DNA of 31,597 nt, taken from assembly GCA_050230475.1 (NCBI GenBank), contig JBFLGF010000058.1, forward strand, positions 62,001-93,597. Reading direction: 5' to 3'. Position 1 is the stretch's first letter, and each line of letters opens with the position of its first letter. The position numbers were made by a program, and so were the translations under genes. Under the pieces are notes generated by a model. It did no database searches, was not told the DNA's origin, and worked only from the letters and a program-made list of their open reading frames with translations. The DNA is from Ancylonema sp. (lineage: Eukaryota). Below are positions 5,075 through 30,475 of this stretch, piece after piece.

Positions 5075-5929
<855 letters not shown>

Positions 5930-6552
5930 GAGGTATTGCTTCGCCGAGGTAGTACTGTATACTCCTAGGAATTCACGCGAAGATGGTCGTACTGCAATAT
6001 TTGTGGTTACGACGGTTTGTGAGTTGGCCAAGCGCACGCGTAATCTCCCCTCAACGCTGCCATGGTGTTGTACTCCAAATTTTTGCGTCGTGAAAGGATG
6101 GTCGACCAACGACCCAGAGATGTTAACCTGCGCCAAGTTGGCCAGCTCCCCGTCCCATATCTCTGCATTCAACGCTTTCGATCTTCCCGCTTCCGGTATG
6201 CTTTTACAGTAAACCCTTGATATAGCAACACAGTGTACAATCTCGACAGTGACAACCTGTCTCAATTCATACTTTGTTTCAATCCCGACATTATTAATGT
6301 AGACATGTTCTACTGTACTATAAACTCGGGAGGCCCAGTGAAGCCGTCCGTTAAAACGAGTGGATAGCATACGCGTGTCTTCGCTTCGTCTTTCCCGATG
6401 GAATTTTGGCAACTTCCCTCGAGCGAAAGGCCGCTAGAATGTGAAGCTGAGGGACTCGGCTGCATATCCATGTGCCTTAGCCCTCTCCGGCTTTCACATT
6501 CGTCGGTATAATTGCATCGATCTGCAACGAATCGCCGTATTACCAAAGGACG

Positions 6553-7130
6553 ATGGCAGCCATTGCTTGCTCGCTTATGGTGGCAACTCCGGACGTTGCT
6601 TCTGCCGCGGCTCAGTCTCAAGTGTTTGGACGACGCATGTCCTTGAATGCCGTTGTTCAGAGGCCTATCCTCCGGTCTTCCTTCGCTGTGCGCGCTGCGG
6701 GCCCCAAGGTTCATTTTCATTTTCATTAGCCGCCCCAATGCACGGACTGCGTTCAGATTCCTTATCACAGAGTGCTGCAGGGCTGCGGGTCTGTGGATAT
6801 CAGAAGATTGTAGCGCCTTACTTCAACGCCACTTCTATATGCCAGCGTGATCGCTTCGAAGCCTGCTTTTTCTTCTCGTAATCACAACATCGTGTCTCCT
6901 CAACTGCTGATTTTCAGGTGGATGAGAACATTGCCCAAAAGATTGCTGAAGCGAAAGAGGTCTGCGATTCAGGATCAACTGGGGAGTGTGCTGCTGCTTG
7001 GGATGAGGTGGAGGAGATCTCTGCTGAAGCTGCCAATGCCAAGCAACGCGCCAAGGAGGCCGCCGATCCCTTGGAGGTTTTCTGCGCGGAGAACCCCGAA
7101 ACTGATGAGTGTCGAACCTACGAGGACTAG
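6553..7130 (+). CDS. CP12: Calvin cycle protein CP12, chloroplastic; exons 6553-6708 and 6918-7130
   Basis: Exon 2 has the CP12 hallmarks C-x7-C, AWDEVEEISA and DPLEVFCAENPETDECRTYED*. Exon 1 encodes an Ala/Ser/Arg-rich transit peptide (MAAIACSLMV..SSFAVRAAGPK). Phase-0 GT-AG intron. Confidence 0.96.
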
Positions 7131-10036
7131 ATTATTGGCTGTACATACTGAGTTGTAGGTGGGAGGCAGATCCGGTTGATTCCGAATTTTGAGCCAAGAG
7201 AGTCTCTAAGGGTGGCTTAAGATTATATATGGAGTGAAACTTCTGAAGGGATGGAACCGCAGTCACATTCTGGTCCTTGCCAAAATGTGCAGGAATTTTA
7301 TCATGGGGTTTATTAAACAATGCCACATGATGTCAACTTACAAACTCTCATTCGCGAATAAGATGTGCCTCTTATAACCATGGCCGTACCAAATTCGTGC
7401 ACATCGTGGTGACACGTTATCCTTTGAGTAGGCGTAATAACTGCTTGCACGAGAAGCGTTGTCCATCACTCTTCTATTGAAAATGGCAATCTCCGATCGG
7501 ATCGAGCCCAACTATGTTAACTACATTATCATAGTCAAATCATGAAGACATGTAACGCTGAAGTAACTTTTGGACAGCGCAATTGGGTTTGGCATTTGCA
7601 TTTACAATTTCGTATGCTTTCCTTGCAAAAAATATTCGTCTCAACTCATCATGGTCGGGTGAAGCAAAATTGGTATCACACACTTGCGGTGGATTTTTCA
7701 GTTGTCTAACATGTTTCGGGTCATTTTAAACACCATGTATTGGGCGGGTTGCGGAACATGTGCAACATAAAAGTTGCACGGCGCGGGGCTAACTATGCAT
7801 CTTATAAGGATGGGTCATCGATCATCTTGGGCTGAAGATTGTTTCCAATGATTGCTTGGTAAAAAACGGGAAACAACCACACTTCAAAAAAACACGACTC
7901 GAATGTTCGCAATTACGTTTCAAGGTTTCCAGCAGAGTTCACCAACATACCTCGACTCTCAACAAGCCTATTAGTTGTGTGCGATCATAATCCGTGGACC
8001 TCATGAGACAATCAGACACAAACAATGCTTTGATGGGCAAGTCTTGGTAATCCTCATAAGTATTGAGAAGTAACCATGATGTTATTATGTTCCAATATAC
8101 CGTGATGGTCATACATAATGACCCGGAAAAAAATAATGGGGTGACCCACCCGTTTGACTCAAGCAAACTCTATTTAGTATGCCGTGACCCAAAATTATGA
8201 CCCGAGTAAACGATATATGTGATACCGTTAGCCGGCATGCAAAATAATGACCCACCCCAAAACAACACTTAAGTTTAAACGCATCAATCACATGAGTGTG
8301 AATGCTTAGCGTTGGGTGAAAGAAGCGGCGCGAGTTCTTGACTCTAGATTTCGGCCCTTAAGCGGATTTTGAGAAGTGGAAGAAGATTGTCAATCTTAAA
8401 ATGTATCGTTAGATTTTTTCGCTCATCGTCATGACACGACTCCTTTTGGAAAATGTAGAGATTTCCTAAAAAAATAGACGTGAATGCTATGGAAGTAACA
8501 AATTTTTAGTAGAGGTCGGAGACAAATAACGAGCTGGTAGTGACGCAGTGTGAGTAGTGATTGAGTGTTTGGAGATATTCGTAACATAATTACCCATTCA
8601 AATTTACGATGAGACAACATTCAAATTGTGATTGAAAAGTATTGTATGGTATGCTTCGATTACATTGAATGTATCATAATACCATCCAGAAGGGAAATAA
8701 CACTCGAAAGTTCAATGTAATAAACAGATAACTAACAATTCGTATGTGTTCCCTAACATTGAAAGTAATCATGACTTGTACGTTGTAACTAACATTACTT
8801 TGATAGTTTTGTGTACTGCACAAGATAAAACTATCCACATAATTTACGTCCGACATCTTTTTTACATAGTTTCTCCCCCCAAACTCCACATTACAATGCT
8901 TATTTGTTCCGAAGTGATACACACATTTGCAAAAAGCAAACCGCTCACGATCAATTTGGTCGTTACCGGACCACGATTAAATCTTATGCGACCGGGGTAC
9001 AACCACATGTGTATTTTGATTTTAAAAAGCCAATGAAATATATTTTATGATGTTGACCCACTATGCCGGATTTCGGAATCTATGGCATGACCCACCAACA
9101 AATTATTGAAGTCGACCCGACATTCCCTTTTCATGATTATTTGCGGGTCAATATGAATGGCCAGTACAGGTGCACCAAGTCGCTTGTACATCCAATACCT
9201 AGGTCCGAGACCCGAGCTTGCTTAGGCGGAGGTTGGGTTTGACGTACCAAGGGTTGCCATATATGCTAGTGCCACACAATGCGTGCACTCTCTCTTTCAC
9301 TCCGCCAAGCATCCCAATATTCTTGAAGCTTGACTTTCGTGCTGATGAGGTGCTATCTAGGGTTGTGAAATTACCGTTATTCGGAAATCGCCCCCGTTGA
9401 TACCGACCAGGTTATGCTAATTGCGTAATCCGTAATTTGGCCTAGCATCATTTTACGCTCGGCCAATTCAGATACGAATGGCGAGATGTTGATATGGAGC
9501 CGGGATTTTCAACTCCACAAGTGTAAAAGCCAATAAAAATCTTACGGAAAAAATACACACTCTTGTGTTTTCTATCATCGCACGCGTTGACGCAAAAGTC
9601 CACGAGTAACTTCCCTTACGATTTAAAAAAAAATCATGATCAGATATGCCGAAATCGAATTTGCCTCTTACCGTACATATATTTCCACATTCCCACATAT
9701 GAAAATTGCTATGCATATTTGTGTACGGATAACCGCACCGTGTTTGTACGGTTACACACAAGTAACGCTTTGCGAGGGGTAATGGCGATTCCGGGCCCGT
9801 CATTACCATTAGTGAGTCGCGGTAAATGGTATGGGTAATGACGCGTCAAAATGACGCGCAATCAACCATCAAACGAAATTGTCAGACTAACGTTCACAAG
9901 CCTAGTGCTATCTTGTTGATGAGGATTGTGAACCTAGATATAAGTCCGGATAGGATCCGATCCGGCACCGATCCGGATCGGAGGCGCCGAACATTTGGTG
10001 AAAATCGAAGATTTTTTTTTTGAAGTCCATGTGAAC

Positions 10037-10360
10037 GATAGTTGGTCCCGATCCCTGATCCGGATCGGCGCCGGATTGGACCCGATCCGGATCAGCACGG
10101 GATCGGGAAAATTCCGATCGGGTCCGGCCCATGAAGAAAGGGGGGAGAAAACCCGAAAACACGTTTTTGAGGGTATTTTGGAAAACTCCAAAAAAATGGC
10201 GTGAAAGCTTTTTACGCCACTATCGGTGCCGAGGAAGCTCCCCCCCCCCACCAATTTCCACCTAATGTTCGTCGCCACTGATCCAGATCGGCGCCAGATC
10301 GAACCCGATCCGGATCGGTGCGGGATCGGAAACTTTCCGATCGGATCGGAACCAACTATG
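10037..10360. mobile_element. MITE, probably hAT-related, with CCGATCCGGATCGG subterminal repeats
   Basis: Imperfect TIR GATAGTTGGTCCCGATCC / GGATCGGAACCAACTATG, sharing the CATAGTTG terminus with the 1729-2878 element. Flanking 8-mers ATGTGAAC and ATATGTAC match at 6/8. A further fragment with the same repeats lies at ~9947-9990. Confidence 0.75.
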
Positions 10361-12013
10361 ATATGTACTCAATGTGGAGTGCAACCCCAAAAAAGAGTTT
10401 TTTTTTTCTTGGTTTTTTTTTTTTGTTTTTTATCTCGTTACGATACTATCGGATTTTTTTCGATCCCGTACCGATCCAAGAATCTTGAAGAATCTTGAAG
10501 TTATAATCGGATTTTTTTGGAGATAATTACGGATTTAGAAATACAATTTCTACAGCATTTCCTTATTTGGGAATGAAATTCAAATGATCCGCCCCTATAT
10601 ACACCCACATGTGGGTACGTATATAACGTACTTTTCAACGTCTCAAGGCACGTAGCCGGCACTCATAAAAGTCGCGATATCTCGCAAGGACACGTTCTTG
10701 TCGTTATTCAAGGTCTTATTTTGTCGTTTAGGGCATCCACGGAATTTCCCATATCGTGGGAGTTTATCGCCCGGTAATGAAGTTTGTGACGTCGTAAATG
10801 TCGCTCGTGCAAACTTGTGTCGTTTCGCTAATGCCTACTTTATCGTGTAGCCCGTTTCACCACATCTGGAGTTACAACTAGGTGGCCAAAGATTTCCCGT
10901 AAATGATACCTAAATCGAGGTTTACTAATGAGTTTTGAGTTTTGAGTTGCTTTTTCTACCTACCGTAAATGGTTTCTGTTTTTGAAAATTAATTAATCTA
11001 TTCATGATTCGTAAACATAATGCGAGGAACCCGGTAGTTGTCATCGATGATTTCTGGCATATAATTTCGGGAAACCTACATTAAAAAAAACAAAAAAACA
11101 ATAAGAATTCCAATAAAAAGTAGTGAATTTTAGTGAATGGTTCTATTTTTAAAAATTGTTATAAAAAGTGATTGATTTCCGATTTAAGTGAGTGATATAT
11201 TCAGAATAATTTACGGTGCCCAGTACGGTATTTATAACAAAATTTAATGATTACTTATTTAAGAATTATTTAGTGCGCAGAGTACGTTGTTTCGCGCCGG
11301 TGTCGGATACTTTCATTTCTAAAACTTGAATGGCAATATATGTAGTATAAATAGTAAGTCTTGCTAGATTTGCATTCAAAATAGTGCGAAACGCTTCACG
11401 TACGCCTCGCTAATTGTTGCCACTTTTACCACTCATACCACGCTCTTAGGAAATTGCTCAAACATGTATACAATAGCAACTTAACCAAGAGTTGCAATTA
11501 ACTCCCCAACCCAAAGGCTAGACGCCAATACAAGACAAAAGAGGTTACTAGAGATGCCAACGATAAAATTGCACTTGCTCTTATAACAGAAGCAAAGAAA
11601 GGTCATACCTATCGCACCATCGTCCTACCGCCTACATATCTATTGTATCCTATGACGAAAATTGTCGTACGGTACGTACAACGTATTTCTAATCGGGCGC
11701 TCCTGGCAACTCGAGACTATTTTAGGTTAGGATCGAAAAAAGAATTTACTCGAGCATATTTTACGAACCTACCCGATTCAACGGGGTCGTACACGATCCC
11801 AAAAGCATATTCTTGTTGAAATATAAGAATCAAAAGCACGACAGATTATGAAAGATTTATGTAGAACGATTTTTATGGGGTAGTGCACGATAGGTTGGGT
11901 ATATCACGGTACAATAAGGTAGAATAGGGTAGAATATGATATTATACGGGTTATCCGGGATTTTAACTTCATATCCTAGGTCGGATAAGGGTTTTAGCCT
12001 CTATACACATGTG

Positions 12014-12786: not shown

Positions 12787-13143
12787 AAGACTACATCATT
12801 CTTTGCAATCTGTGTGTGTGTGTATATTTGATCTGATTCATATGAATCTGTGGCTGTCGCTCTTTTTGAGCTAGCTTTGATAATCGATTGTAATTTCTTA
12901 CATCGATTCGCTGACGCTCTCTCTGAGCCAGCAAGCGTGCGTGTGTGTGTTAAACATCTGTCGATTTGCCCGCGTTCGCTCCGAACCGGCACTTTCATTT
13001 GTGTGTGTATGTGTGTGTTTGTTGTCGCTCGCTCCGAGCTAGCATTTTTTTGTAAACACCTGTCTGCTGACGCTCTTTCTGGGACATCATCTTTTATCGA
13101 CGCGCCGTCGATACTTTGCTTTCGCACCGAAAGTAACTCTTAC

Positions 13144-13607
13144 TGTCAGGACCCTCGCTACAGTCACTAGGGCTCCTTAGCGAGGTCCCCACACTTAGCG
13201 CTAGAGCGCTACTAGCTCAGTTTCCTCTTTAGCGAGTTCTGTCCCTATAGAGTGGGAGTTGTGTCCCTAGCGGCCGCCTGGCCCATAGGGAGTATTCTGG
13301 TGTGTCCTTAGCTCAGGCAGTTGTGCCGTTAGCCAGACTTGATGTGTCCTTATCATATTAGTGTGAGTTATCCCACTTGTAGTCGTGGTTCAGACTTCAG
13401 CCAGTTCCTATATCTAGTCGATAGGAATGCCTTTAGAGCATTCCTATCAACTCATGTATTTGCCCCTTCCGATTATTATCACCACCATTTCCCATCGGCT
13501 CATACCATCTCCTCATTCCCTCTCATTCCTTCGGCATTTCGCCATCTTTCCGCTCGGTGCATATTGCAACTTGCTTGCTAGGGCGTATTTTGCATCCGTC
13601 CCTAACA
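13144..13607 (+). mobile_element. Solo LTR of a chromovirus-type gypsy family
   Basis: TGTCAGG...CCTAACA termini and a 5-bp TSD CTTAC (13139-13143, 13608-13612). The first ~40 bp closely match the LTR starting at 30476. Confidence 0.9.
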
Positions 13608-14679
13608 CTTACGGCTGCTAACCTTGATAGTCTGCTCCATTACTTTATAGTATTTTCACAGACTTTTGTGCTGTAAACCATCTCTTAGCTCGCCCTCGGC
13701 GTTAAGTAGTGAATTGTTAAGTAGTGAATTTCACCAGACCGCTGAGACGTGTGAGAGATATAATATTGATATCTCAGCAGAGACTCAATCTGCCGACAGC
13801 GGAAGACCTTGATTTCGATAACTAAAAATTTGAAACAAACATTGTGATCATTTTTTTTTTTTTGGGTACATCTTTTGTCTTTCGTGACTACTACTTCATT
13901 GACGATATTCACTTTTCATATCACAATTCAATGATAGACGTTTATAACCATGGACATTGGGTCGAAAGAGCATCAAAAATTGAATATATGTTGAACAAAT
14001 TAACATCTGAGAAAGTTCTGCTTGCCATTACGGGAACAAACATTGGCGCACGTCTAGATGTTACAAACATACAGGACGCAGGAGTGGCAGGAGCACATCC
14101 CTCGTCATCTCACCATTCAGTTGCTTCAAGCGGAGGAGGTGTGGAAAGCTACATTGGCTTTCACACGATACGCGCAACCTAAGACTAAAAAAGTTGATCC
14201 ACCAGCTTACACATTTATGGCACCTCTGTCGGACATTCCGGCAGGATCTGTTCACATTTCTGATGAACAACTTGAAAGAGTGCTGGAAAGACTTATGACA
14301 AAACTTCGAACGACTACAACAATCACGAAGATCGAACGTAACCTGGGGTATTCCATTGATAACCGACCAGACCTTTCACCTTCATGTACCTCGACACCAC
14401 TCTAGTCTGCACCACATAAGGCACCAAACATACCTGATTTTGAAGAACCATACGATGTCAAGAATTACGATGTTATTTCTGTGGACAAACAGGACATACA
14501 ATGACCAACTGTCCACGACGACGGAATTTGTTACTCGACTCACCTCAGGGTGACATACCACTGCCACATGATTACCCTCGACAAGCACAGATGTCACAAC
14601 CACCGATGGCACTCTGTGTAATGGGACCACAAAACACCACACCACTAGTGATCCCTTGCAACGCCAGATTGACAACCAA

Positions 14680-15010
14680 CTCGCATATACCAACCGCTGA
14701 CAACAGTCAATCCATACTCACTATTGGTGGAGAAGCACCTACACTACCAATATTCGATTCGGGTGCAAAGAACGTGACCATTGGTACCAAATTTGCCAAA
14801 CAACTCAATCTTACACCACAAGACCTTGATCCTGGAGAAGAATACGTAACTTCAGATGACAAATACCAACAATCTTTGGGGACCACCAAGAAAGCATACA
14901 CCATCACCATTGGACATGGTAAAAACCAAACTTCGGTTAACGCCAAACTTCATTTGACCACCCTCCGACAAATACGATGTTTTGTTGGGAGTACCTTCCT
15001 GGGACCTGGG
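14680..15010 (+). pseudogene. Retropepsin-like aspartic protease
   Basis: LPIFDSGAKNVTIG catalytic motif; after a frameshift, the YDVLLG motif near 14972-14990. Confidence 0.8.
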
Positions 15011-15753
15011 CAGTACCTTCCTTAATAGGAGGTATTACAAACCCATGGAGCCAACACTTTCACTACCGCGTTGATTGACAAAAAGAGGGTACACATCGTG
15101 CCTCAATTTCAGTAAAATATACTTTGCCACACGCGGCATCGGTGCATTGTCAATACATGAATGAAGGTGTTACTTACACTTTTGCTATCACATTCATGCA
15201 AATTCCGCACGAGGATTTCTTACATTCAACAGAAGAAGCCGACATTCTGACAAAATTTGAGTTTCGTGTCATGGAAGAAGGTGTATACCACGAACCACAA
15301 AATTTTCCAGATGGACCTATCGACAATGAGTACCAACCTCAGATGCAGGAATGGGAAACCAATACCATGGTTTACCTTGCTGCAACCAAACACACAGACA
15401 TTCGTCAAGAACATCGACCACAACTTAATGCAACTGCCAAAACAATGGCACAAGTAAATGAGCACCATGCATTCAACATACTTACAACCTTGCGTATCAA
15501 CAGCGTACTGTATTTGCGCAAGGCCATCGACAAAATAAAAAACCAGCCATTACCACAATGGAACGCATAGAAAGGCATACCGATTCGTGATGCTGTACCA
15601 ATTGACCCATCTTACACATCATGCTTACAACCTAAGGCGCTGCAAGATGGCCTACACATTTGGGAACATATGAAAATTTTTTCACCCTACAGCCTCTCCA
15701 TCAAAGATGACCAGATTGACACAGGTCTGTTCAACAGTTCGGATCCTACATTC

Positions 15754-15888
15754 TGCAGACAATGCGGTTCACGCAACGACGAGAAACATCTCATTTTTTG
15801 TGACGACTGTAACGATGGTTACCACATCTACTGTCTCACACCCCGGCTCAAAATAGTACCTAAAGGTGCATGTTTCTGTCTTGGCCAC
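15754..15888 (+). pseudogene. PHD finger
   Basis: CRQCGSRNDEKHLIFCDDCNDGYHIYCLTPRLKIVPKGACFCLGH fits C4-H-C3 spacing. The last ligand is His and the usual Trp reads Cys (TGT). Confidence 0.92.
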
Positions 15889-15942
15889 CAAGGCGAACGC
15901 TGCTCCTGATACCCAATTTCTAAACTACCATTTCACAACCAC

Positions 15943-16370
15943 GGGGGGGGGGTGAGAGCAACACAATACCACATTGTGACTATATGAGATGATCGACATT
16001 CGGAAATAAGAAAAGAAGAAGTTATGAGGACAACAAAAGAGAGAACTTCAGTTCACAAAGAAGTCAAAGTGTGAAGAATATCATTCCGGGCGGCCGACTC
16101 CAAACAGCACGTCAGCTGTCATGACGCTAGAGATCGCTAAGGCAAAACCCCTCTACGTTAATACTCTGCTATAATGAGAGTATTCGATATAACGATTTGG
16201 TAGAATTAGTACTTTGCTAGAAAAATAGTGAAGTACGAAATTTCTACGACTTGAAAATAACGCGTGGCGTATTTTCCGAAGTCTAGAATCCAGCAGTCTT
16301 CAACAAATAGCTGCGTGTCGATTTTGTTAAAATCACAAGTCCCTTTCGACTTGTCGATAATCCCGGCGAT
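15943..16370 (+). mobile_element. Polypurine tract (G10, 15943-15952) followed by a probable truncated 3' LTR starting TG at 15953
   Basis: Stop codon after the PHD, a short spacer, a G-run, then TGAGAG.. and non-coding sequence with GGGCGG, CACGTCA and TATAAT motifs. No LTR 3' end was found. Confidence 0.55.
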
Positions 16371-16384
16371 TATTTGGAGATCTG

Positions 16385-16948
16385 GTGAAGGACATTCGAG
16401 ATACAACTACACTCATCAAGTCTTTTTTGGGCTTTCCAGCAGTTGCCGACGCATGCAGTTTCGGTAGTACAGCCCACCGTGTTCGATGCATTTGGACAAA
16501 TTGGATATCACCACATGTATTGGAACTGGCTATTCCAGACACACCGGAATTACCACCTTTATCAACCATTCTTGAACCACATCATCGACCTAACAAGGTA
16601 CTTAAAGATGATGAACCACCATTCACTCCAGTTAACGAAATTGGCGAACTACGTCGTGCACTACCGACACTTGTTTCATACCTAGGCAGTTACCAATTTA
16701 CGTTTCAAGGGTACAACCAACCAGGCCCTGGAATGCTTTACAACACGGAGAAACATGACTGGGAGGACGCAAATGTCTGGGAACGTGAGAGACTTATGGG
16801 TTTTGATAATGGAGATACATGTGCACCAGGCATTTCATATAATACCCGGAAAGCAATGGTGGGACGCACAATGGATCGCAATATGGCTAAATGGTTGGGA
16901 GGCATACTCATGGCTATACATGCACTCCCATCTTATAGCCTTGCATAG
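16385..16948 (+). pseudogene. DNMT3-like cytosine-5 DNA methyltransferase, C-terminal half (motifs VIII-X)
   Basis: DACSFGSTAHRVRCIWTN (cf. DNMT3 DA..SAAHRARYFWGN), ERERLMGF (cf. EMERVFGF) and RKAMVGRTMD (cf. RQRLLGRSWS). Confidence 0.88.
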
Positions 16949-17229
16949 GGTACATACCCCACCTTGCCAACCAAAGAAAGGGGTGGGGGCAACTACTCTA
17001 TTCATTCATTATACCACACCCTTCATTACGATTTTGCGACCGATGAATTTTACAACAATAGGAATCACTGGCATCAAACTTCACCTGAGCAACACCAACT
17101 TGCTCAAGATGCTATTCCTATCACTAAATTTATTATTGAGTGAAACCGATAACGAATCAACAACTGTCACCGATGACAACATGATTCCATCCAACCCAGA
17201 TTCACCACTTATAGCTGAGGTGAAACAGA

Positions 17230-18200
17230 TTACATGGAAAATTGGCAATAATCTTTCGGAGGAACAAAAACTTCAAGTTATTGATCTTTTGGAGGAAAAC
17301 CGCGATGTCTTTGAATTTTCTGTGGAAGAATTACTTCCATCCAACAATACTCCTATGGAAATTCCTTTGCAAACAGCCCAACCAATCTTTCAAAACTCTC
17401 ATCGTCTTTCTGACACCGAATGGAGTTTTGTTCGAGAAAACTGTCAAAAGCTTCTCGAACTAGGCATGATCAAAAGTGACAATAACAATTACGCCTCGGC
17501 AACAGTCGTGTTACGCAAGAAGGATGAGAATGGCCAACCAACAAACTTTCGCCAATGTGGTGATTATCGTCCTATCAACAACCAAACCCAACAAGACAAG
17601 TATTAGCTTCCAAGAATTGAGGACACCTTTCAAGACATGAAAGAAGCAAAAATCTTTACTAAATTGGATTTACGACAAGGGTACCACCAGATCCCTATAG
17701 CTGAAACGGACAAATGAAAAACCTCATTTTGGGGAGCTGACCGTTAACTTTATGAATGGAATGTCGTACCATATGGACTAAAGAATGCACCACCATTCTT
17801 CCAACGAACTATGGACATAATTTTGGCAGGCCTTCGCAACTCGCGATGCTACATTGATGACATCAGCAACTCGAGCAATGCTTTCGAGGACCATCTTCAA
17901 CACCTTCGACAAGTCTTCCATCGTCTTCGGCAGTTCAAGTTGAAATGTCATCCAGGTAAGTGCTTATTCTTTGCAGATGAAATGGATTTTTTAGGCCATA
18001 AGATCTTTAGGAAAGGTATAGCACCACAAGATGAGAAAACCAGAGCCATTAAGGATATGCCGACACCAAAGGATATTCATCAACTTCGCGCTGCTCTAGG
18101 GTTGTTCTCATATTACCGCAAGTTCGTTCCACACTTCTCCGCGTTTGCTTCCCCACTCAACGGACTTCTGAAAAGGGATGTCAAATGGCATTGGGACGAA
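17230..18200 (+). pseudogene. Ty3/gypsy reverse transcriptase
   Basis: RQCGDYRPIN, KY*LPRIED, FTKLDLRQGYHQI, PYGLKNAP, YIDD, FLGHKI, LGLFSYYRKFV. In-frame stops at about 17604, 17715 and 17745. Confidence 0.96.
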
Positions 18201-18229
18201 ACTCAGTTTTGTCCCAATGGCTGAAAAGG

Positions 18230-18680
18230 CTGTTCAAGAAACAACCTTTTCCGAACTTAAGCAGGCACTCTGTTCAGAGCCAGTACTTCGCAGACCAGAT
18301 ACCAATAAACCATACTTGTTAGCAACCGACTGGAGTGCACATGGTTTAGGTGCCGTTTTGAGTCAGACAGATGAGGATGGTACCGAATATGCGGTAGCAT
18401 TTGCTAATCGCAGTTGTAACAATGCGGAACGAAATTACACCAGCTTCCACGGGGAGTGTCTTGCTGTGATCTGGGCGGTGCAACATTTTCGGAAATTCTT
18501 GTTTGGTAAACCATTTACCCTCATTACCGATCAATCACCCCTCAAATGGATCGTGACAACCACCAAACTCACCGGCAAACTTGCACGTTGGGCACTCTTA
18601 CTTCAAGAGTATGAATTTGAAGTGATTCATCGCCCCGGTGTTGCAAACTCTAATGCCGACGGGTGCAGTCGTTATCCACT
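18230..18680 (+). pseudogene. Ty3/gypsy RNase H
   Basis: LATDWSAHGLGAVLSQ..ECLAVIWAVQHF..ITDQSPLKW..RWALLLQEY..ADGCSR. Confidence 0.95.
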
Positions 18681-18906
18681 ACCAGAGACAGCCACTGACA
18701 ACCATGAGGTTGAAACCTTAGGGGAGAAAACACCATGCTACTACATGCAGACCTCACCTACGGGGCACAGTCCACCATCATACTTTTTGAGTTTTCACCG
18801 AGGTGCACCACAACCAGAGGATGTTAAAGTGGACATTTGGGACGATAATGCCACAATGACACTTCTCAAAACTCATACATACCTACCAGACTTGACACCA
18901 CAAAAA

Positions 18907-20030
18907 TGTCATAGCGCTGCAGCTGCCCCGGGTCATAGTAGAACTCCTCGGAGGCAGCGTCGAAGTGCATCGCATGGAACTCGACGGGGAGTGAGAGCGC
19001 CGAAGTTTTCATGTTGTCCAGAAACCACTCCCTATCCCCCCCCCCCCCTTAGACCACACACCTCTTTTATTTGATTGAGAGTGGGGTCTGATCCCTACGG
19101 GATAGAGTCGAAGGCCAGAATCGCCCCAAACCACTGGATGACGTGGCGATCGATGATCCAAAAGCGTCGTCACCTGTGAGAAGGGCCACCGAGCTGGGGA
19201 TCGACGATGCCAATCGAGGGATCTCCCAAGAAGGCACGGATCAGTTTGTCCGCGTCCGGCACCGCCTTGTCTGCGTTTTCGTCGATGCAAACGTTCTCTA
19301 GGAGGTAGATCACTAGTCGGCCACGGTGCTCCGTCTGACACCAGTTTATGATGCGGCACAGGTCAAGAAAAACTTGGAAACGGGTGTCGCACTGACCTCT
19401 CCCAAGGCCTGCTCTTTTGATTGGTTGACGGGGGAAACCGGCTGCCACCATGTCGATGGGGCCACGCTTGGTTGTAAGGTTGACGAGGTCCATAGGGCCG
19501 ATCTGTCGGATGTCTTGTGGCAGTCGTTTGTCGATCCCCTAGATCGCAGATGGAGATAGAAGGTGTGGATGAAGGGCGTGCAGCTTGGCCACCACAACAC
19601 GAGCCACGACATGCACATCTGGAGAGATGTCCACAGAGGTGTCGGTTTTGATGGGGATGCCGTTGTCGACACAACGCATCAGGTTGGGGCAGCCCGAGCC
19701 CCCCATGAAGTCCACCACGTGCACTCCCTCCTTCACCTGTTGCACGACTAGTTGGATGTCTTGGCAGATAGGGCTAGCCAGATTGAGTTCTAGGCCATTC
19801 CACACCACAATTGTAGGCTTTTGCCTCTTCGTTTGCTTCTTGGCCGAAGTCTTCCGATCCAGGTGCGCCTCTACCTAGCCTCCCCGAAGGATTTGGTGAT
19901 GGCTGCACGCTAGGAAAGCTTGGCAAGGGTCTGCTCCTCTAGGGACCAGCTGCCTTTAGTGAGAGGAGGTCCCGGCTCTGGGATGATGTCCCGTCTCCGT
20001 CTGGCTCTACTCAGCGATCCAGAGCGAGCT
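18907..20030 (-). mobile_element. Fragment of a second DNMT-carrying gypsy element (PR-DNMT linker, DNMT and downstream linker)
   Basis: Contains the DNMT listed next. The sequence before motif I (VWNGLELNLASPI..VKEGVHVVD) aligns by eye with the + element (WNA*KGIPIRDAVPI..LQDGLHIWE). Confidence 0.75.
19110..19730 (-). pseudogene. Cytosine-5 DNA methyltransferase (motifs I-VIII and the end of X), inactivated
   Basis: Motif I VVDFMGGSG, II SVDIS, III QDI, IV DMVAAGFPRQ (Cys to Arg), VI YLLENV, VIII GPSHR*RRFW, then IDRHVIQWFGAIL. Stops at 19539-19541 and 19170-19172. Confidence 0.92.
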
Positions 20031-20480
20031 TATAAGCTTTTGAGTGATTAGACGTGCCGGAATAATTAGGTGGGCGACAAAACGAACCGTACGCAAAAGG
20101 ATCTCTATCACTGTTGATCACCGAGACAGGAGTTGCGTGTGTGGAACGAATTAATATTGTGATTGCATCGGGGATGGTAATACCCGATGCGCTTTACAGA
20201 TTGTTGCGTGCCGACGGTCGGCACAATTGACCGTCGGCCTATCATTGACTGACAGCTCTTCTACATGTCAACGGCACATGCCGGACATTTCTGACACGAC
20301 TAAACTAGCCAGTCACGACGCTCGACCAAATAACGTCTTAAGCGTCGGAAACATGTCAGGTGCCCGGGCACAAACTTGCCCCCGCATACAGAGGCACATC
20401 TAGATATTGCTCCCGGTTAGAGTAACCGGTCACAACTGGACTAGCACGCATATCATATGGCTATCCAAAATATTCTAACA
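20031..20480 (-). repeat. Copia 3' LTR (450 bp)
   Basis: Direct repeat of 26133-26601. The minus strand reads TGTTAGAAT...AAGCTTATA and is preceded by the PPT CGAGGGGGTG (20481-20490). Confidence 0.95.
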
Positions 20481-21039
20481 CACCCCCTCGGATGCCATGC
20501 TACAGTTGGCATAGATGCAGACATCACAAGGAGTACCCAAGTCATTGCCAAAACATGGCAGAACCATTGCATAACATATAAACAAGTTTGGTCTTCCCTA
20601 GCATAAAAATGTGCTAGGGGATCTATGCCCTATCGATAAATGCAGCCGTTCGGAAGCCGATCGGAACTTCATGAAGCCGAACGCTCCAGAACCTTAGTCG
20701 TTTTTCAGGCCGAAGCCCAGAACAAACAAACAAATACCACAAGTTAGGCGAAAAACAAAAAAACTTATGAAAATATTTTTGATTTTTTAACTTTTTCAAC
20801 TTCACGATTCTGAACAACTTCACGATTATGAAACAAAATCTCAATCTCAAAACAGCATAACTTCAAAATTACAAGTCCTCTCAGCACCAACAAGTTTTGC
20901 AACAATGAAGGACATACATTCGAAAATTCAGAACAAACTGACAAGTTTAAAGTTGAGCAGATTCACACTTTCTGATTTTAAAGTGTCCTTAAGCGTTTTC
21001 AAGTGTCTTTGCAAGGTATTAAGGTAAGAGTGTGACTTA

Positions 21040-24000
21040 GCTGGATCAGCTGAAGTTGGTGTACCCTCCCCATTACTTCTGTCTGAAAAGAAACATAACA
21101 ACACACCCCCTGCCAACATGCATGGCATTCGAAACCTTCGATCATAAAAATAAAAGAAAAGACTGACACCCCCAGTTCAGTATAACCGTCCAAAACCTAG
21201 ACTTTTGCTGTGTCTGTCCAGTAAAAACTTGGAGAGCTCGTTAGTTAGCATATCTGCTGGCACATATTTTAGTCTCCCCGTGCTGTGGCATTCCCGTACC
21301 TGCTGTCAGCAGACTCTCCGATATACCACATTAAAATGTGCTTTCTGTCTTTGCACAGGATTCTGGATCATGGAGAGAGGGTTGAGTCAGTGTGGTGATT
21401 TGGTGTGGGAATTTGAGTTCTTTCAAGACTTTAGATAACAGCATTCTTTAGACACACTACAGGCAGCGATATACTCAGCCTCAGCAGTGCTCTGTGGCAA
21501 CAGTTGACTGTTTCTGTGTGACTTCCAACTCAGTGCTGTCCCACCAACCGTGGTTACCCATCCAGTGACTGACTTCCCTGTCATGCTACAACTGTTCCAT
21601 GATGCATCGCAGTAAAACCCTCAAATATGTCCCCACATCCGCCCCACAAACGTCAGTCCGTGGTTGACAGTCCCCTTAAGGTATCTGAATAGTTGATGTA
21701 AGGCCCTTATGTGTGCAGTCCCAAGGATTCCCCATGTGTTTTGCCAGTACCCCCAAGTGCATACCCGATGTCCAGTCTGGTTTGTTTCATGGCATATATG
21801 AGTGATCCCACTTTTCCCCGAAAGTCTGTTATTTCTTCAGGGGTAGGGGGAAGAGTTGGTTCATCATTCTGTGAAATTTGAGTTCCAGGGGTAAGGGGAG
21901 TTTGGTTGGATTACACTTTGTCATCCCATAACGTTCCAGAACTCCCCTTAAGAACCCTGACTGTCCCAGTGTGAGCACCCCTCTGTCTATCCCTCTTCAC
22001 TTCCACCCCCAGGATATGGGTTAGGGAACCCAGATCCTTAACTTTGAACTTTTTACCCAGATCTTCTTTAAAATTTTTGACGACCATTGCGTTAGGACCT
22101 GTGATCACCTGATCATCTACATGTATTCCCAGTATGATTCTGCTCTCTGCGTCCCCCCTCATATATATACATGTGTCCATTACGCACTGTTTAAACCCTT
22201 CAGATATCATAAATTTTCTGAACATTTCCTGCCATACGTGGCTCCTCTGTTTTAGACCGTATAAAGCCCCCTTAAGTCGTAAGACCTTGCCCTCAGCACC
22301 CCCATTGATATACATACGTGGTGGTATTTTCATGTAAACTTCTTCTTACAGACGTCCATGCAGGAACGCTGTGATTACGTCCATCTGTTTCCCAGTCATA
22401 TTGGTTTGCTATAGAGAGGAGTAGGGTGATAGATGTACTTCGATTACTGGTGCAAATACCTTCGTTATAGTCAATACCCTCTTGCTGTAAGAATCCCTGT
22501 GCGACCAGTCTGACTTTATATCTTTCTATATCCCCCGTGGTGTTGTTTTGACCTTAAACACATATCTGCACCCCACAGCCTTTTTACCTGGAGGAAGCAC
22601 ACACACCTCAAAGGTGTTGAACGTCTCCAGGGAGGGCTGCTAACTCCTCCACAATGGCCCTGTCCCACTGGTCCCAGTCTCGCCTCATCATCGCATGGTT
22701 GATGAGTGGCTCGGAGGAGTTGCTGTTAGATGCTACGCACGCGTAGCCCGGATCCACAGGACCGAAGCCAGTGTAAAAACTGTTGGGCTCCCACTCAGTC
22801 GCTGAGTAGTTGGCGTGTGCTGCGTCATCAAACTCCTCCCCATCACATCACATGAGGTCCCCATACTCCGCAAAGTTGGCTCGCCTCCTGGCCATCACCC
22901 GATCTGCTACACTGCCAGGCTCCCCCACATCTGGGTTCGCACCCCCTCCTTGCACCTCCTCCTCCCCTGCATCTCCACCTCCTGCGTTGTTGATCCCTGA
23001 TTGGCTGTCAGACAGCACAATCGTGGCGTTAGGGACCTCAGCAGCTTGTGGCTGGAAGTTGTCGTGCGGATAGTCGATGGCAGCTGCTGGCTCAGGGACT
23101 GCTGGTTCTGCTGGTGCTGGGATTGGCTGCAGAACTGCTGGCATCGGTTGCAGAACTGCTGCTGCTGGCATGTTGGGGTGGACTGCTGCTGCTGGCATGT
23201 TGGGGTGGACTGCTGCTGCTGGCACAACTGCTGCAGCTGGTTCATCTTCAGGGTCGGTGAAAAGGTAGAAAAAGTGTTTTTCTGCTGCCTCCTGAATCTG
23301 GGGAGCTCTCCCCCCCATCAGCTTCGGGTACCCCGGCACCTCCTCAAAGAACCTCACGTCCATGCGTGATATCACCCCAGCTCTATGGGGGTCGAAAACA
23401 TTGTAGCCTGCACTCCCCGCAGCCATCCCCAGAAACACACCAAAGCAAGTACGAGGGGGGGCAAACTTGTCCTGACTGTTCTTTTCCCCCCCAACCTTCA
23501 AATATTGGACCAGACACCCGAAATTATGACTTTTAGTAACTGTCATTCTCTTCCCCTCCCAGACCTCAATTGGAATTTTCCCAGAAAGCGACTTAGTGGG
23601 TGTTCTATTCCTCAACCAGTTTGCATGTAACAATGCCACGTCCCAATAAGACTTCGGTAGACCTGACCAGATTAAGATGCATCGCATTTTTTCTGTCAAT
23701 GTTCGGTTCAGTCTTTCACAGATTCCGTTTTGTTCAGGACTATATGCTTCTGTGGTTTGTTTATCAATACCCTTCCCCCCACAGTAGTTTATCCAGTCCT
23801 GAGACATATACTCCCCTCCCTTATCTGTCCGAATAGACTGTAGGGGCGACCTCGACTGGACCTCGAGCAATTGTATAGTGACTCTTGCTCGGTTCAGTGC
23901 TTCATCCATTGTTTTTAACAAACTCACAAATGACAGACGTGTGGATACCTCTATCCCTGTCTGAGCATATGTATACCCTCCGTTAGCTGACCTGACAGAC

Positions 24001-25869
24001 AGTGGTCCAATGAGATCTAGGTGAATGCGACCCATCTTGGGGCATGTCCCCAGATCTGCACTGACCTTAGCATGACTGAGCTGAGTCATCTTCCCCTGAC
24101 AGCAAACCTGACATCCCTTTACTTCAGTTAATTCCCCCTGACTTAACTCTGGGATGTCCCCACGTCTGGCGAAATCTGACATCACATCAGAACTGGGGTG
24201 ACCCAATTGTGATGCCAGACCATGCTGTGGACAAATTCGCTTTGTATCATGAGATCCAGGCATAACGATTGTGGAGCAAGCAGAGTCAGACCACTAGGCT
24301 GCTGCAACACATCAGCCCATTTCACATTTCCTTGTTTAATTCAGGACCCGTGGGCGCTGTAGAAAGCTCAGCCCACCTCTTCTGACGAGGCACGATGTCG
24401 ACACGAGGGTGCAGGCAAGGTTGGGACGTGGATCGCGCTGAGTGGCTGCACAAAGAAAGCGTCGCCATTCCTCACTCGGATGTGCACGAAACCAGTGCCC
24501 TCCACCTTGTGTGACGAGCCGTCAGCAGTGGTGATGTAAAGGCCTGCTGCGTGCTCAGGGTAGGTGTGTACTCCACAAAGTGTTCACGTGCCGTGAATAT
24601 GTGGTCGGTAGCACCTGAATCCAGGATCAGGGAGTCTGAGTGAGGACCAGCAGACATTGCCCGGGCAACATTGAACGAGAAAGCACCGAATGCTAAATAA
24701 TCCACATTAGCGTTGATTTGTTTGTCAGCAAAGCGAGCAAGTCTAGCTTGTGCATCAGCCCTCCTAGCAGCCTCTGGGTTCATTAAAGCCATGTCAGATG
24801 TTCTTTTTCTGCATTGTTCAATTGTGTGACCGACAATGTTGCAATATCTGCACTTTTGCCTCCCCCCTGAACTTCCCTGAGTAGCGTGCGCGACATTTCC
24901 AGCTGCTGGTGATGACGCGCAGGGCATTGCGCAGCTCGGTGGCCTGCCTGATGGCCTGTGACATTTCCATGGCCCCGTATGGCCTCCGCCAGATGCTGGT
25001 GAAGGGCAGTTCGCTCTGATGTGCCCGAATTTGTGGCAGCCGAAGCATTCGACGCCTGCAGCGTCTCTGCGACCAGCTCCAGTCGCACCACCCAGATCTG
25101 CTCTGCTACCTCCAGCTCCATTCCCCCCCCCCCCCCAGGTCCACCCATGCGCTTGGTGACCTCCTGGCAGCGCCCCTTTACGGTCATTCAGCTCCTTCGC
25201 ACGTCGTCGCGCAGCAGCGCACTCACGATGTGTGAATCGTGAAGAGGTGTGGTGTGACGACTCGGACCATGGCATTAGCTTTGAGACCATTGGGCTGTAA
25301 TGCGTGTTTAAAGAGTTCAGCAGGTTGATCGCCTGCTTCGTCGGAGATACTGGCGCCCCCAGATTCTTCAGGTCCTGGTGCAGCTGCTGCAGACGCTTGA
25401 CGTACGTATACGTTGAGGTCCTCCGCCTCAGTCTGTATGTCTGAATGATCGCGCTCAGCAGTGCTTCCGTATTTGCGATCTCGATCGCACCCTGCACCTG
25501 GTAGAATGTCCGCATGGCATCCCACATTCCGGCAGCTGTCGTGCAGTCCGTGACGTGCGTCAGCTCCGAAGGTCTCAGGTGCTTCACAATGTACGACATA
25601 GCAGCCAGATTATCCTCGTCCCATTTCTCCAGCTCCAGCAGCTGCTGGGAAATCTGCTGCTGGACATCGTCGATCCCCCTGGCGGCAAATTGCAGCTCGT
25701 CAGGTGTCAATGGAAGGTTAACTTCTGGGCGACACTTTCGCGGCATGCTGTCCCAATCCATAACCAAACGATGCAGTTTCTTGTCTGCCAGCCCATACTT
25801 GACCTTGAAGGCCCATCCTGTATAATCAGCTCCAGTAGTGAACTGTGGGATTTGCGTCCTATCCGACAT
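21040..25869 (-). pseudogene. Copia gag-pol polyprotein, frameshifted
   Basis: ATG at 25869; CCHC knuckles; protease ILDSGATDH; integrase LGHP..CQVC, HLDLIGP, RTDKGGEY, NGICER; RT ALYGLKQ and HVDD; RNase H CDASW..SVTGW..EAEY. Confidence 0.95.
23154..23223. repeat. 27-bp in-frame tandem duplication in the copia IN-RT linker (AAAVHPNMP x2)
   Basis: ACTGCTGCTGCTGGCATGTTGGGGTGG occurs twice, followed by a partial copy. Confidence 0.85.
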
Positions 25870-26118
25870 TGTGGCAGCAATTGTTTAGGATTTCACAAAA
25901 TTTCTCGCTCAGCTCGAGTTCTCAGCAGTGCAATTCCTGCACTGCAGCACTCCTCAGCTCGAAAACTTGCAGCGCAATGTCAAAATTACGTGCAGACCTT
26001 AACAACTACGAATATATTTGCGCTCACTGGCAGAATATACCGTTCTCAGAGATAACCGCAGCGAAATCGCGTGGAGCCTTTAGTTTTTAACCAACACGGC
26101 GTCTGAACTAGACCGCAC

Positions 26119-26132
26119 GTGGGCCCATAACC
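26119..26132 (-). promoter_or_regulatory. Primer binding site complementary to the anticodon arm of initiator tRNA-Met (half-tRNA priming)
   Basis: GGTTATGGGCCCAC lies immediately after the 5' LTR. The + strand GTGGGCCCATAACC equals the tRNAi-Met anticodon stem-loop sequence. Confidence 0.9.
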
Positions 26133-26601
26133 TATAAGCTTTTGATTGATTAGACGTGCCAATTAGGTGGGCGACAAAACGAACCGTACGTCCGCAAAAG
26201 GATCTCTATCACTGATGATCAACGAGACAGGAGTTGCGTGTGTGGAACGAATTATTATTGTGATTGCGTCGGGGATGGTAATACCCGATGCATGCGCTTT
26301 ACAGATTGTTGTGTGCCGACGGTCAGCACAATTGACCGTCGGCCTATCATTGACTGACAGCTCTTCTACATTTCAACGGCACATGCCGGACATTTCTGAC
26401 ACGACTAAACTAGCCAGTCACGACGCGCGTCAAACAAATAACGTCTCTAAGCGTCGGGGAAACATGTCAGGTGCCCGGGCACAAACTTGCCCGGCCCCGC
26501 ATACACATAGCAGTACATCTAGAAATATTGCTCCCGGTTAGAGTAACCGGTTACAACTGGACTAGCAAGCATAACATATGGCTATCCAAAATATTCCAAC
26601 A
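26133..26601 (-). repeat. Copia 5' LTR (469 bp)
   Basis: The minus strand reads TGTTGGAAT...AAGCTTATA; homologous to 20031-20480 with several indels and substitutions. Confidence 0.95.
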
Positions 26602-26815
26602 CCATCCCCTCCTACCTCCAAGAAGTCACCCTTATGGACCTCGATGGCACCCGGCGCAAACGGCTGCAGCTGGAATCCAATGAATATGTTAGGCGCAAGA
26701 AGGGAAACCTGTGCATCTACTGTGGAGGCGCGGGCCATAATCGCGACACGTGCCCGGAGAAGCCGGCCAACCAGGCCCGCCACGTCCGCTGTCTGGACAC
26801 TTCTCGTGACCAGCC

Positions 26816-26863
26816 AAAAAACGATGCCCCCAGACAGTCCTAGGAAGGGTCTGTCTGGGCATG
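26816..26863 (+). promoter_or_regulatory. -1 ribosomal frameshift signal between gag and pol
   Basis: Slippery heptamer A_AAA_AAC (26816-26822) in the gag frame. The -1 frame is open into the protease ORF. It is followed by a hairpin, CCCAGACAG...CTGTCTGGG. Confidence 0.8.
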
Positions 26864-29800
26864 GCCCTTTCCCCCTCCCACCCCATCCTCAACCCAGCCC
26901 CCCAGCCCCGCCACCTGTACCTGTCAGTCCAGCTGCTCCAGTACCCTCTTCCCCCCATTTCGGTCAACGCCGTCATCGATTGCGGCGCGTCCGGAAACTT
27001 CGTAGACCCCACGCTGCTCGCTCAGCACCACTTGACCACCATCCCCCACCCCACACCCACCCAAGTGGAGCTGATTGATGGCAGCGCCCCGTCCGCAGGC
27101 CCTATCACGCACTTCTACAAGGGCCTGTTGCGATGTCTGGGCTCCCATACCGAAACACTCCAGTTTGACGTAACCCGCCTAGCCCACTTTCCCATGGTGC
27201 TAGGCTATCCTTGGCTCCAGCGCCACAACCCGTTCATCGACTGGCAGGCAGACGCTCTGCGGTTCACGTCCCCCCACTGCTAGAGTGCATGCCTGCCAGC
27301 CGCGCTCAGCTTCCCCCACCCACTTCTCACAAACCCCCCCCCCCACCCCTGCTACCCCAATCGTCCCCCACCCTGCGATTGCTGCCAGTTCCCTACCCAT
27401 CCCCGCCCCCCCAGACCCGGAGCTGCTGTCTAAACTCCCCCCCGAGTACCACGACTACGCAGACGTGTTCCTCGGAATCAACGGCCAATACCCCCTTCCC
27501 CCTCACCGCCCCTATGATCTGGAGATACCCCTCTTGTCAGGGAAAGAACCACCTTGGGGTCCCATCTACCCCATGTCAAAACCGGAGCTGGCTACTCTGA
27601 AACAATACATCTCTGACAACCTGGCAAACGGATTCATCAGACCACCATCTACCAGCCCTGCGGGGGCCCCTGTCATGTTCATTAAGAAAAAAACCAGATG
27701 GCAAGCTCATACTCTGCGTGGACTACAGAGGTCTGGATGCGGCTACGGTAAAGAACCGCTATCCCCTACCCTTCATACCTGAGATGCTGGATCGCTTGCA
27801 CCGGGCGAAAATCTTTACAAAAATCGACCTGCGCAACGCTTACCACCAGGTGCGGGTGAAGGAGGGGGGTGGAAGATTGCGTTCCGGACCCGCTACGGCC
27901 ACTTTGAGTTCCGTGTCTGTCCGTTCGGGCCCTGCAACGCCCCCGGCTGCTTCCAACACTTCATCAATGACATCTTCTTTCGTCCAGCACCTAGACGTCT
28001 TCCTGGCGGGTATGCTTGACGACATGGTGATCTACTCGGCAGACCAGGAAGAGCACGTTTCCCACGTCCGCCAGGTCCTGGATATCCTGAGACATAAGAA
28101 GCTCTACGCTAAGATTGAAAATTGCGCGTTCCATCAGGACACCATTACCTTCCTCGGCTACCAGATCTCCCCAGCTGGGTTGGAGATGGACCCGGCAAAG
28201 GTGACGTCTGTGCCAGACTGGCCTACCCCTACGTCTGTAAAGGAGGTGCAGTCTTTCTTGGGGTTCGAAAACTTCTACCGCAAGTTCATAAACCACTACT
28301 CTACCGTGGCCTGCCCCCTGACTACGCTCACCCGGAAAGGCGTGAAGTTCTGCTGGACACCAGAGGCCCAGGTCGCTTTTGACTCCCTCAAGCAGGCCTT
28401 CACATCTGCACCCATCCTCAAACACTTCCAACCCACCCTCCCCATAACCCTCGAAGCCGACGCCTCCGTCGGCCTTGGCTGCGTCCTCAGCCAGACGTCC
28501 GCTGCCGGCGAGCTACACCCCATCGCTTTCTACTCCCGAAAGAGTTCTCGGAGGCCGAGCTCAACTACCCCATCTACGACAAGGAGTTGCTGGCGATCGT
28601 CAGCGGGTTCCGTCAGTGGCGCGTCTACTTGGAGGGCGCGGCTCATCCTATTGTGGTCTACACATACCATAAAAACCTGGAGTACTTCCATGGCGCCCGC
28701 ACGACCTCCCGCCGCCACGCTCGCTGGGCAGAGACCCTAGCTCCTACGATTTCACTATCGTCTACAGAAAAGGGGAGACTAACGGAAAACCTGATGCTCT
28801 CTCCCGCCGTCCCGACTACCTGCCAGACCCACCCAATCCCCGAACTCCCTACTATCCTACCCGATTCTCTTTCCCCAATAATTTCCCCCCCGGACGATTT
28901 CCCTATCCTGCTGTTTCCCCCCCCCCTCCCCGAGCTGCTGCGCTTTTCATCTCCCCCACGGACCCCATATTACCTGTTATCCGTGAGGCGCAGCTTCTCG
29001 ACCCTGCCACTCTCGCCGCCATCCGCGAACAACTGGCTATAAGACCTGAGGAGGAATGAAACCCCCTCGCACCCTCAGGCAGGTCATCTTCCTATTGTCT
29101 ACGCAATGATTTGCTGTACCGACATCATCGCTTGGTCATCCCACCTAGTGCTACGTCCCTGATACTCCACAAATCCTAAAGCAATTCCAAGACGCGCCCC
29201 TCGCAAGCCATTACGGCGTTGCTCGCACCCATGCACTCGTGGCGCAATATTTCTATTGGCCGGGAATTTCTACTGCAGTGAAAGCCTACGTCCGCAGCTG
29301 TGACACATGTGCGCGGAATAAGCCCGTCCGCCATGCACCCTACGGCCTGCTATTCCCAAATCCTATTCCTCACAGGCCATGGAGCTGTATCTCTATGGAC
29401 TAGATCACAGACCTCCCGCCATCTAACTACCACGATGCGATTCTAGTAGTGGTCGACCGTCTGACTAAGGCTGCTCACTTCATTCATTCCTACGACGAAG
29501 GCAATACCAGCTCCTGACGTCGCTGCCATTTTCTTGCGGAAGGTGGTGCGGCTCCATGGCATGCCTTCCACCATCATTTCCAACCGCGATCGAGTCTTTA
29601 CCAGCCGTTTTTGGAGACGGCTCAGCTGTGCGGTATCTACGCCAACCGCTCGATTGCGTTTCACCCTCACACGGATGGCCAGATGGAGCGCCTTAATTCT
29701 GTCCTCGAGCAGTATTTACGCATCTACACAGATTACCAGCAGTCGGATTGGTCGAGTCTGCTGCCCATGGCAGAATTTTCCTACAACAATTTCCTGCATT

Positions 29801-30423: not shown

Positions 30424-30475
30424 CCCGTCCTACTACCCGCGCCCCGCGGCGTTCCGCGCCTCGAGGGGGGGGTAC

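Follow-up and report, generated by a model that had tools for sequence, protein, structure and literature searches.

Broken copies of a Gypsy retrotransposon family carrying a DNMT3-like domain that ends at a conserved in-frame UAG, in a contig of Ancylonema sp.

We analyzed a stretch of 31,597 nucleotides of Ancylonema sp. (assembly GCA_050230475.1, contig JBFLGF010000058.1, forward strand positions 62,001 to 93,597), hereafter called the window, which contains parts of a Gypsy family of long terminal repeat (LTR) retrotransposons with a DNMT3-like cytosine methyltransferase (DNMT) domain. The window is a chimera of broken and rearranged copies of this multi-copy family, with copies A and B on the plus strand and a distant third one on the minus strand. 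The three copies are all dead and leave no function to explain. In this family, the DNMT is not fused to the reverse transcriptase (RT) but closes the upstream frame at a conserved in-frame UAG, which is new in comparison with published Gypsy-DNMT3 elements. The layout up to RNase H (RH) is very probably Gag, protease (PR) and DNMT, followed by UAG, RT and RH.

Domains and junctions of the three copies

Six-frame translation and Pfam searches found on the plus strand, in this order, a zinc knuckle, a retropepsin, a linker, a PHD finger, a run of ten G (G10), a repeat, a DNMT piece, RT and RNase H. An earlier note on this DNA had read positions 14680–18680 as one Gypsy element with PR, DNMT and RT in one orientation. 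The assignment to Gypsy with a DNMT3-like domain was correct, and the retropepsin, RT, RNase H and C-terminal part of the DNMT were all borne out. The continuity was not, since a PHD finger, a stop, G10 and an LTR-like repeat of about 420 nucleotides lie between the DNMT pieces; the PHD finger, polypurine tract, LTR and minus-strand DNMT had been missed.

Copy A is preceded by the end of a high-copy, LTR-like repeat (13608–13793, plus strand) that terminates in CA and whose approximate limits come from deep contig coverage together with loose contig ends and joints at 13793. The decayed gag (13930–14700, plus strand, start approximate; PF00098, E 6.3e-5, above the cut-off) is spread over several frames with stops, and its zinc knuckle lies at 14468–14515 (plus strand). 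The retropepsin (14720–15010, plus strand, DSG at about 14756) is in the same frame as the zinc knuckle, matches PF13650 (E 7.5e-5, 14720–14887), is 77% identical to P0013 (protein relatives are given as P numbers), and has a frameshift near 14958 that appeared as an indel in the comparison with contigs. It is followed by the linker between protease and DNMT (15025–15667, plus strand), identical at 86% to P0007 and P0008, 77% to P0011 and 59% to P0010. All four alignments stop at 15666. A stop at 15568 in this linker belongs to copy A only and is absent from the relatives, and the linker had no Atlas match above 0.86.

Eight relatives were found for the stretch running from the linker to the PHD finger. 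Four of them (P0007, P0008, P0010, and P0011) continue LQxGLHxWE into DNMT motif I, and P0010 as far as motif IV, in agreement with the earlier reading of LQDGLHIWE as the lead-in to motif I; motif numbers here and below are those that we take to apply. P0009 carries a PHD finger behind an integrase tail ending in I-W-E, P0013 has the protease joined to the linker, and two are linker only. Alignment of P0007, P0008, P0010, and P0011 against P0009 located an in-frame deletion junction at this common I-W-E (15659–15667, plus strand), with the motif I lead-in on its left and the integrase tail on its right, and two contig records break off at 15667. Because the relatives continue the linker into motif I and the PHD finger belongs to the integrase tail (P0009), copy A must have lost, in frame, everything between motif I and the integrase tail by an internal deletion. 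An ADD-like PHD finger inserted in the DNMT was ruled out, the site being this deletion junction. The deletion keeps the frame and yields a Gag-PR-linker-PHD fusion (15659–15909), either as a non-autonomous subfamily or as a single accident. Since P0013 (protease to linker), P0010 (linker to motifs I–IV) and P0001 (motif IV to X) overlap, the order protease, linker, DNMT is a property of the family, and the DNMT between protease and RT is, as had been expected, no one-off insertion.

The integrase tail (15668–15909, plus strand, 75% identical to P0009) includes the PHD finger at 15754–15876 (PF00628, E 1e-7) and ends with a stop at 15907. The nearest solved structures of this finger are the PHD fingers of KDM5B, DPF2, and ATXR5, which are readers of histone H3 tails unmethylated at K4. 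Further along the plus strand, the sequence contains a polypurine tract, G10 (15943–15952), and an LTR-like repeat that starts with TG and is cut at about 16372 (15953–16372, about 420 nucleotides), where contigs have a loose end; depth over this repeat reaches about 15 times that of coding bins. A further piece of it lies inverted at 31560–31597. Although G10 is followed by TG at 15953 and high-copy repeats lie to the left and right, no matching LTR pair for the DNMT elements was found in the window. A joint from 13793 to 15952 occurs in five contigs of sequencing run X1 and two of run X2, and is compatible with split repeats (A-coding-B-A-B) or tandem LTRs. After 13793, sister copies carry a short stretch complementary to a motif that occurs repeatedly some 70–90 nucleotides upstream (13702–13726); self-priming of reverse transcription in Tf1-like elements is a possible parallel. 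No integrase of the family was found in the window, copy B being cut at about 18905 and copy A keeping only the tail with its PHD finger. A short integrase fragment at 3445–3640 (plus strand) resembles the integrases of the DNMT-Gypsy proteins P0030 and P0038 (E 1e-8 to 5e-8).

Copy B starts at about 16373 (plus strand), where the cut LTR-like repeat is joined to the middle of the DNMT. Its DNMT part (16373–16945, plus strand, 91% identical to P0001) contains motif VIII at about 16472–16486, motif IX at about 16781–16804 and motif X from 16862. Motifs I–VI, including the catalytic Cys, are missing from the plus strand of the window. Behind the stop, a coding linker (16949–17400, plus strand) leads to the RT (17400–18020, plus strand; PF00078, E 6.5e-30 with X at stops), which has YIDD at 17850–17861 and stops at 17604, 17715, and 17745. 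RNase H (18298–18612; PF17917, E 6e-35) and the linker after it occupy 18235–18905 (plus strand). The copy is cut near 18905 before the integrase, where it meets the minus-strand DNMT copy tail to tail; the alignment to P0030 ends at 18879. Besides the three RT stops, its decay includes frameshifts near 17130 and 18200. The Ty3/Gypsy order of zinc knuckle, protease, RVT_1-type RT, and RNase H is present, its parts being divided between copies A and B. Summed contig depth from four runs is similar across the coding parts and higher over the repeats, from which we conclude that the family is multi-copy, even though depth does not equal copy number.

The second DNMT3-like copy (18908–19820, minus strand; PF00145, E 3.7e-4) has motifs I–VIII, and a deletion near 19157 joins them to motif X; the catalytic Cys is lost. 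The two DNMTs of the window are about 35% identical, and the minus-strand copy falls on a long branch within the clade of P0001 (Shimodaira–Hasegawa-like approximate likelihood ratio test, SH-aLRT, 99) in a 70-row tree where the commonest class is represented by a random subset.

The segment 16373–16945 is, on comparison with its homologues, the C-terminal part of a cytosine-5 methyltransferase of the DNMT3 type. The PF00145 match anticipated in the earlier note was not obtained for this stretch: Pfam on 16361–16945 alone and phmmer of the same segment against the PDB returned nothing, and a word search for longer homologues found none among 499 candidates. The identity itself holds through relatives. 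Six of 38 candidates were close relatives of the copy B DNMT frame, and P0001 has motif IV (WECQ) and motif VI (ENT) directly upstream of the part that matches copy B. The sister protein P0006 passes PF00145 (31.6 bits for a cut-off of 22), and a family profile of 58 sequences placed DNMT3A first in the PDB (2.3e-22), ahead of DNMT3C/3B, DRM, HhaI, and DNMT2. The AlphaFold model of P0001 (predicted local distance difference test score 90) had DNMT3A and 3C as its top Foldseek matches, and the motifs are in the unpermuted order of DNMT3-like enzymes. In P0001, the catalytic Cys is present, as are E77 (the Glu of motif VI) and R117 and R119 (the arginines of motif VIII); the last three occur in at least 90% of the 58 aligned sequences. 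Across the relatives P0001, P0006, and P0010 these residues are present, and the Cys is absent from both DNMTs of the window. The CpG observed/expected ratio had no special signature in the DNMT elements (0.69–0.76, against 0.58 in the Copia element, 0.86 in the chromovirus, and 0.98 at 1–12000).

A conserved UAG behind the methyltransferase

The DNMT frame of copy B ends at TAG 16946–16948, and the enzyme is not the plain part of a Pol polyprotein that the earlier note had proposed. The UAG is followed by GG, a run of C after 8 nucleotides and a run of G (16946–16992, plus strand), which makes it a candidate stop-bypass site. P0001, P0002 (73% identical), and P0004 end at the same alignment column. 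Contigs over 16890–17170 (n = 418, from three runs and two studies: 359 from X1, 32 from X3, and 27 from X4, one run possibly being the window's own source) had no variant at or above 8% at 16943–16954 and no such indel at 16949–17128. In a quick DNMT tree of 154 rows, from which rows short of motif X were excluded, the window lies within a clade of 11 (SH-aLRT 98). Nine of its 10 relatives in this clade (10 of 11 with the window) end −8 to +2 residues from the UAG site, against 6 of 143 outside it (Fisher p 6e-11, kinship ignored), and among those that share this end position are proteins 31–46% identical to P0001.

The minus-strand copy also has an in-frame TAG (19097–19095) after motif X, then GG, a run of C after 8 nucleotides and a run of G (G13); as the motif pattern was built from both stop sites of the window, its two matches are no independent test. 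The peptide that follows one stop is homologous to that behind the other (7 of 14 residues identical, pairwise BLASTP E 3e-5). In copy B, this peptide (about 17012–17053) shares the reading frame of the stop and is not preceded by an ATG; the RT frame has its first ATG at 17181. The three gapped contig pieces over the frameshift near 17130 keep DNMT and RT in one phase. In copy B, the long open RT frame (16686–17606) had pointed to a +1 frameshift, a model ruled out by the varying length of sister contigs near 17130. The post-stop peptide was found in none of the other proteins retrieved. The DNA behind the stop is known only from the window and the contigs, because scans of JGI metagenomes (63 and 205 stretches) and IMG/VR confirmed no flanked locus.

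Relatives, expression model and alternatives

A search with P0001 gave 620 relatives at E ≤ 0.001. Among the matches listed (150 of 620, 149 of them new), the DNMT lies after RNase H or before the integrase in 70 of 149, 40 of these with a PHD finger; it lies before the RT in one open reading frame (ORF) in six, none with a PHD finger; and 73 have no second domain. Pfam was run on 22 of the relatives and later on 11 more. Names were looked up for 30 clusters; among them, Closterium (with its DNMT in front of RT or behind the protease) and Scenedesmus (with its DNMT behind RNase H) could be named, and no Klebsormidium sequence was identified among these 30. In one relative (P0038/P0171), DNMT and integrase are separated by a G-patch domain (PF01585, E 2.7e-7), and run X7, labelled as a glacier metagenome, contains similar elements in 213 contigs, 21 of which are at least 99% alike.

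The class itself was already known, as stated in the earlier note, and the family is related to published DNMT retrotransposons. According to the accessible text of de Mendoza et al. 2018 (PMC5890265), KnitGypsy-Dnmt3 of Klebsormidium nitens, which is under purifying selection and has its DNMT within the Pol ORF, resembles our family in being a green-lineage Gypsy with an intron-less, non-permuted DNMT3-like domain, for which cDNA methylation was proposed. It differs in having DNMT, RT, and RNase H in one ORF, where the window family has the conserved UAG. That text makes no mention of a PHD finger, the comparison being with its description and not with a Klebsormidium sequence or the domain order in its figures. 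EpiLTRs with DNMT, DAM, and chromodomain are described in the part available of a recent preprint (bioRxiv 10.64898/2026.05.21.726589). The Closterium proteins CAI5973665.1, CAI7886383.1, CAI5990913.1, and CAI7855100.1 and the metagenome proteins P0030, P0168, and P0170 have the DNMT before RT, as here; unlike the window family, these Gag-PR-DNMT-RT-RH-integrase (IN) polyproteins are a single ORF with no stop, and no PHD match was found in the four longest of this type (P0030, P0168, P0169, and P0170). The RT-RH-DNMT-IN-PHD type, such as Scenedesmus sp. PABB004 KAF8056149.1, shares the DNMT3-like family and the PHD finger in the integrase tail, and differs in having its DNMT between RNase H and integrase. 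PHD fingers within a Gag-Pol polyprotein are also found in Chlamydomonas Gypsy-7a_cRei and REM1, with no DNMT among the domains given in the part of the source available (PMC9940879).

In a tree of 44 RTs, the window RT is sister to six DNMT-first RTs (SH-aLRT 97), and together they are nested among elements with a PHD finger in the integrase tail. The simplest history would be a single upstream move of the DNMT, with the lineage of the window keeping the PHD finger and gaining the stop. The relatives show much more variety among Gypsy-DNMT3 elements than the single published family does: there are at least three layouts, members occur in chlorophytes and streptophyte algae alike, and the DNMT has shifted within pol. 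What makes the window's family new is its conserved stop, together with the coding linker that follows and the PHD finger. The literature search, most subscription papers and theses lying outside its scope, found no account of a Gypsy-DNMT3 element that has a stop ahead of its RT.

We propose that intact members of the family encode Gag-PR-DNMT, then UAG, then RT-RH-IN-PHD, and that occasional readthrough bypasses the UAG, a reading to which we give an even chance. UAG-G and UAG-GGR are listed as type III in a published table of readthrough contexts (PMC3542737), and here the UAG is followed by G and by a downstream ORF in phase. In-frame stops between two ORFs are also found in MuLV, Tca2, and SIRE1. 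The likeness to MuLV, on what its description offers, extends to UAG-G placed 8 nucleotides before a possible stem, though not to the pseudoknot, since an H-type pseudoknot behind the stop was supported neither by folding of both sites nor by sister copies. The stop follows gag in MuLV and Tca2 and pol in SIRE1, whereas here protease and methylase lie upstream of it; a recoding site after an accessory enzyme instead of after gag would, if true, be an unusual mode of retroelement expression.

Under the proposed readthrough, most ribosomes would stop at the UAG and release Gag-PR-DNMT, and a minority would read through to the full polyprotein, so that each particle would contain many methylases and few RT and integrase molecules. 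The methylase may then methylate freshly made cDNA at CG, either inside the particle or upon integration, and the PHD finger of the integrase tail may read unmodified histone H3 tails and so choose the integration site. A broader version, which we think less likely than not, is that of a distinct green-lineage Gypsy clade with an active DNMT3 on the Gag-protease product, RT and integrase behind a programmed UAG readthrough, cDNA marked before integration, and the integrase PHD finger replacing the ADD reader of DNMT3; DNMT and PHD finger would then be writer and reader of one epigenetic circuit, held at different stoichiometries through recoding. The proposal bears on why retrotransposons keep a cytosine methylase: a DNMT on the abundant Gag side of the stop suggests that its dose matters and points to an action inside the particle, which is testable.

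Several observations weigh against this reading. No contig spans a whole element, the layout having been assembled from different copies, and the direct link from RNase H to integrase and PHD finger was absent from the contigs in the window's family. The trees are quick searches without bootstrap, and the ends of the clade proteins are gene calls on contigs of 0.8–5.2 kb with the DNA behind them not in view. The linker peptide of the minus-strand copy is one frame off its stop, across the G13 run, and post-stop variants were not enriched for synonymous changes (7 of 23, for 25% expected). Local folding gave weak or no signal of a stimulatory structure (z −0.6 to −2.6 for the plus-strand copy and about +1.0 for the minus-strand copy), and the best plus-strand hairpin relies on a pair absent from most sister copies. 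A similar stop context in Tca2 gave no readthrough in yeast, according to the available text (PMC2194720). Motif IV is WEC instead of the usual PC, and the KnitGypsy-Dnmt3 enzyme was inactive in yeast, a result that its authors, in the text available, call inconclusive (PMC5890265).

The alternative that survives best, still unlikely in our view, is that UAG-G is a 3' splice acceptor, the unspliced RNA producing Gag-PR-DNMT and a spliced minority, which skips the DNMT or its end, producing RT-RH-IN. The site reads YAG/G, pyrimidines make up 14 of the 20 bases before TAG in both copies of the window, and folding of either site found no clear readthrough structure. There is also a precedent in Ogre, where the ORFs are separated by an intron between GAG-PROT and RT instead of a stop, as described in the part of the source available (PMC6317226). 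However, the Ogre intron is a long non-coding spacer, whereas here in-frame coding sequence lies directly behind the stop; moreover, the bases before the stop vary as coding sequence does, four of five variants being at third positions, and the final residues of several clade members have purine-rich codons. The DNMT is on the Gag side under readthrough and splicing alike.

It is distinctly unlikely that, whatever the route of expression, the DNMT rides along with weak or no catalysis, serving for instance as a Gag module that binds DNA or RNA. Its non-canonical motif IV, the loss of the catalytic Cys from both window copies and the lack of KnitGypsy-Dnmt3 activity in yeast would suit such a role, but Cys, E77, R117, and R119 are all present in P0001, and the DNMT3 domains of SymbioDIRS are active on CG in the accessible text of the same study (PMC5890265). 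We consider it improbable that RT-RH-IN is made separately, from an internal promoter or by re-initiation, with the stretch after the stop retained for some other purpose, a central polypurine tract for example. A G-run resembling the 3' polypurine tract does lie behind the stop in both copies, the RT frame offers the ATG at 17181, and a weak junction promoter is reported for Tca2 in the text available (PMC2194720); nevertheless, copy B has a conserved peptide upstream of that ATG, and the first codons beyond the stop differ synonymously, which suggests translation. The reading of the stop as a plain nonsense mutation, carried by an amplified and non-autonomous subfamily of an element with a single ORF, as the one-ORF Gag-PR-DNMT-RT-RH-IN relatives of Closterium and metagenomes might suggest, is largely refuted, since the end position is common to proteins 31–46% identical to P0001 and to the distant minus-strand copy.

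Neighboring genes and elements

The host of the window is a green plant or alga, because the window contains a CP12 gene with one intron and a likely transit peptide (6545–7130, plus strand; PF02672, E 1e-23). A small Cx9C (CMC4-like) host gene (5690–5830, minus strand; PF08991, E 5e-6) lies head to head with it. The end of a spliced host gene is found at 660–1660 (plus strand), and its translation recalls what we take to be the C-terminus of WAPL.

Two other retrotransposons follow the DNMT copies. The Copia element (20031–26602, minus strand) has an LTR pair about 95% alike, and its five flanking bases differ, so that it has no clean target-site duplication. A decayed chromovirus (26600–30900, plus strand) retains PR, RT, RH, IN, and a chromodomain, with an LTR from 30473. 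An LTR related to that of the chromovirus is inserted at 13143–13608 (joint 13138–13608).

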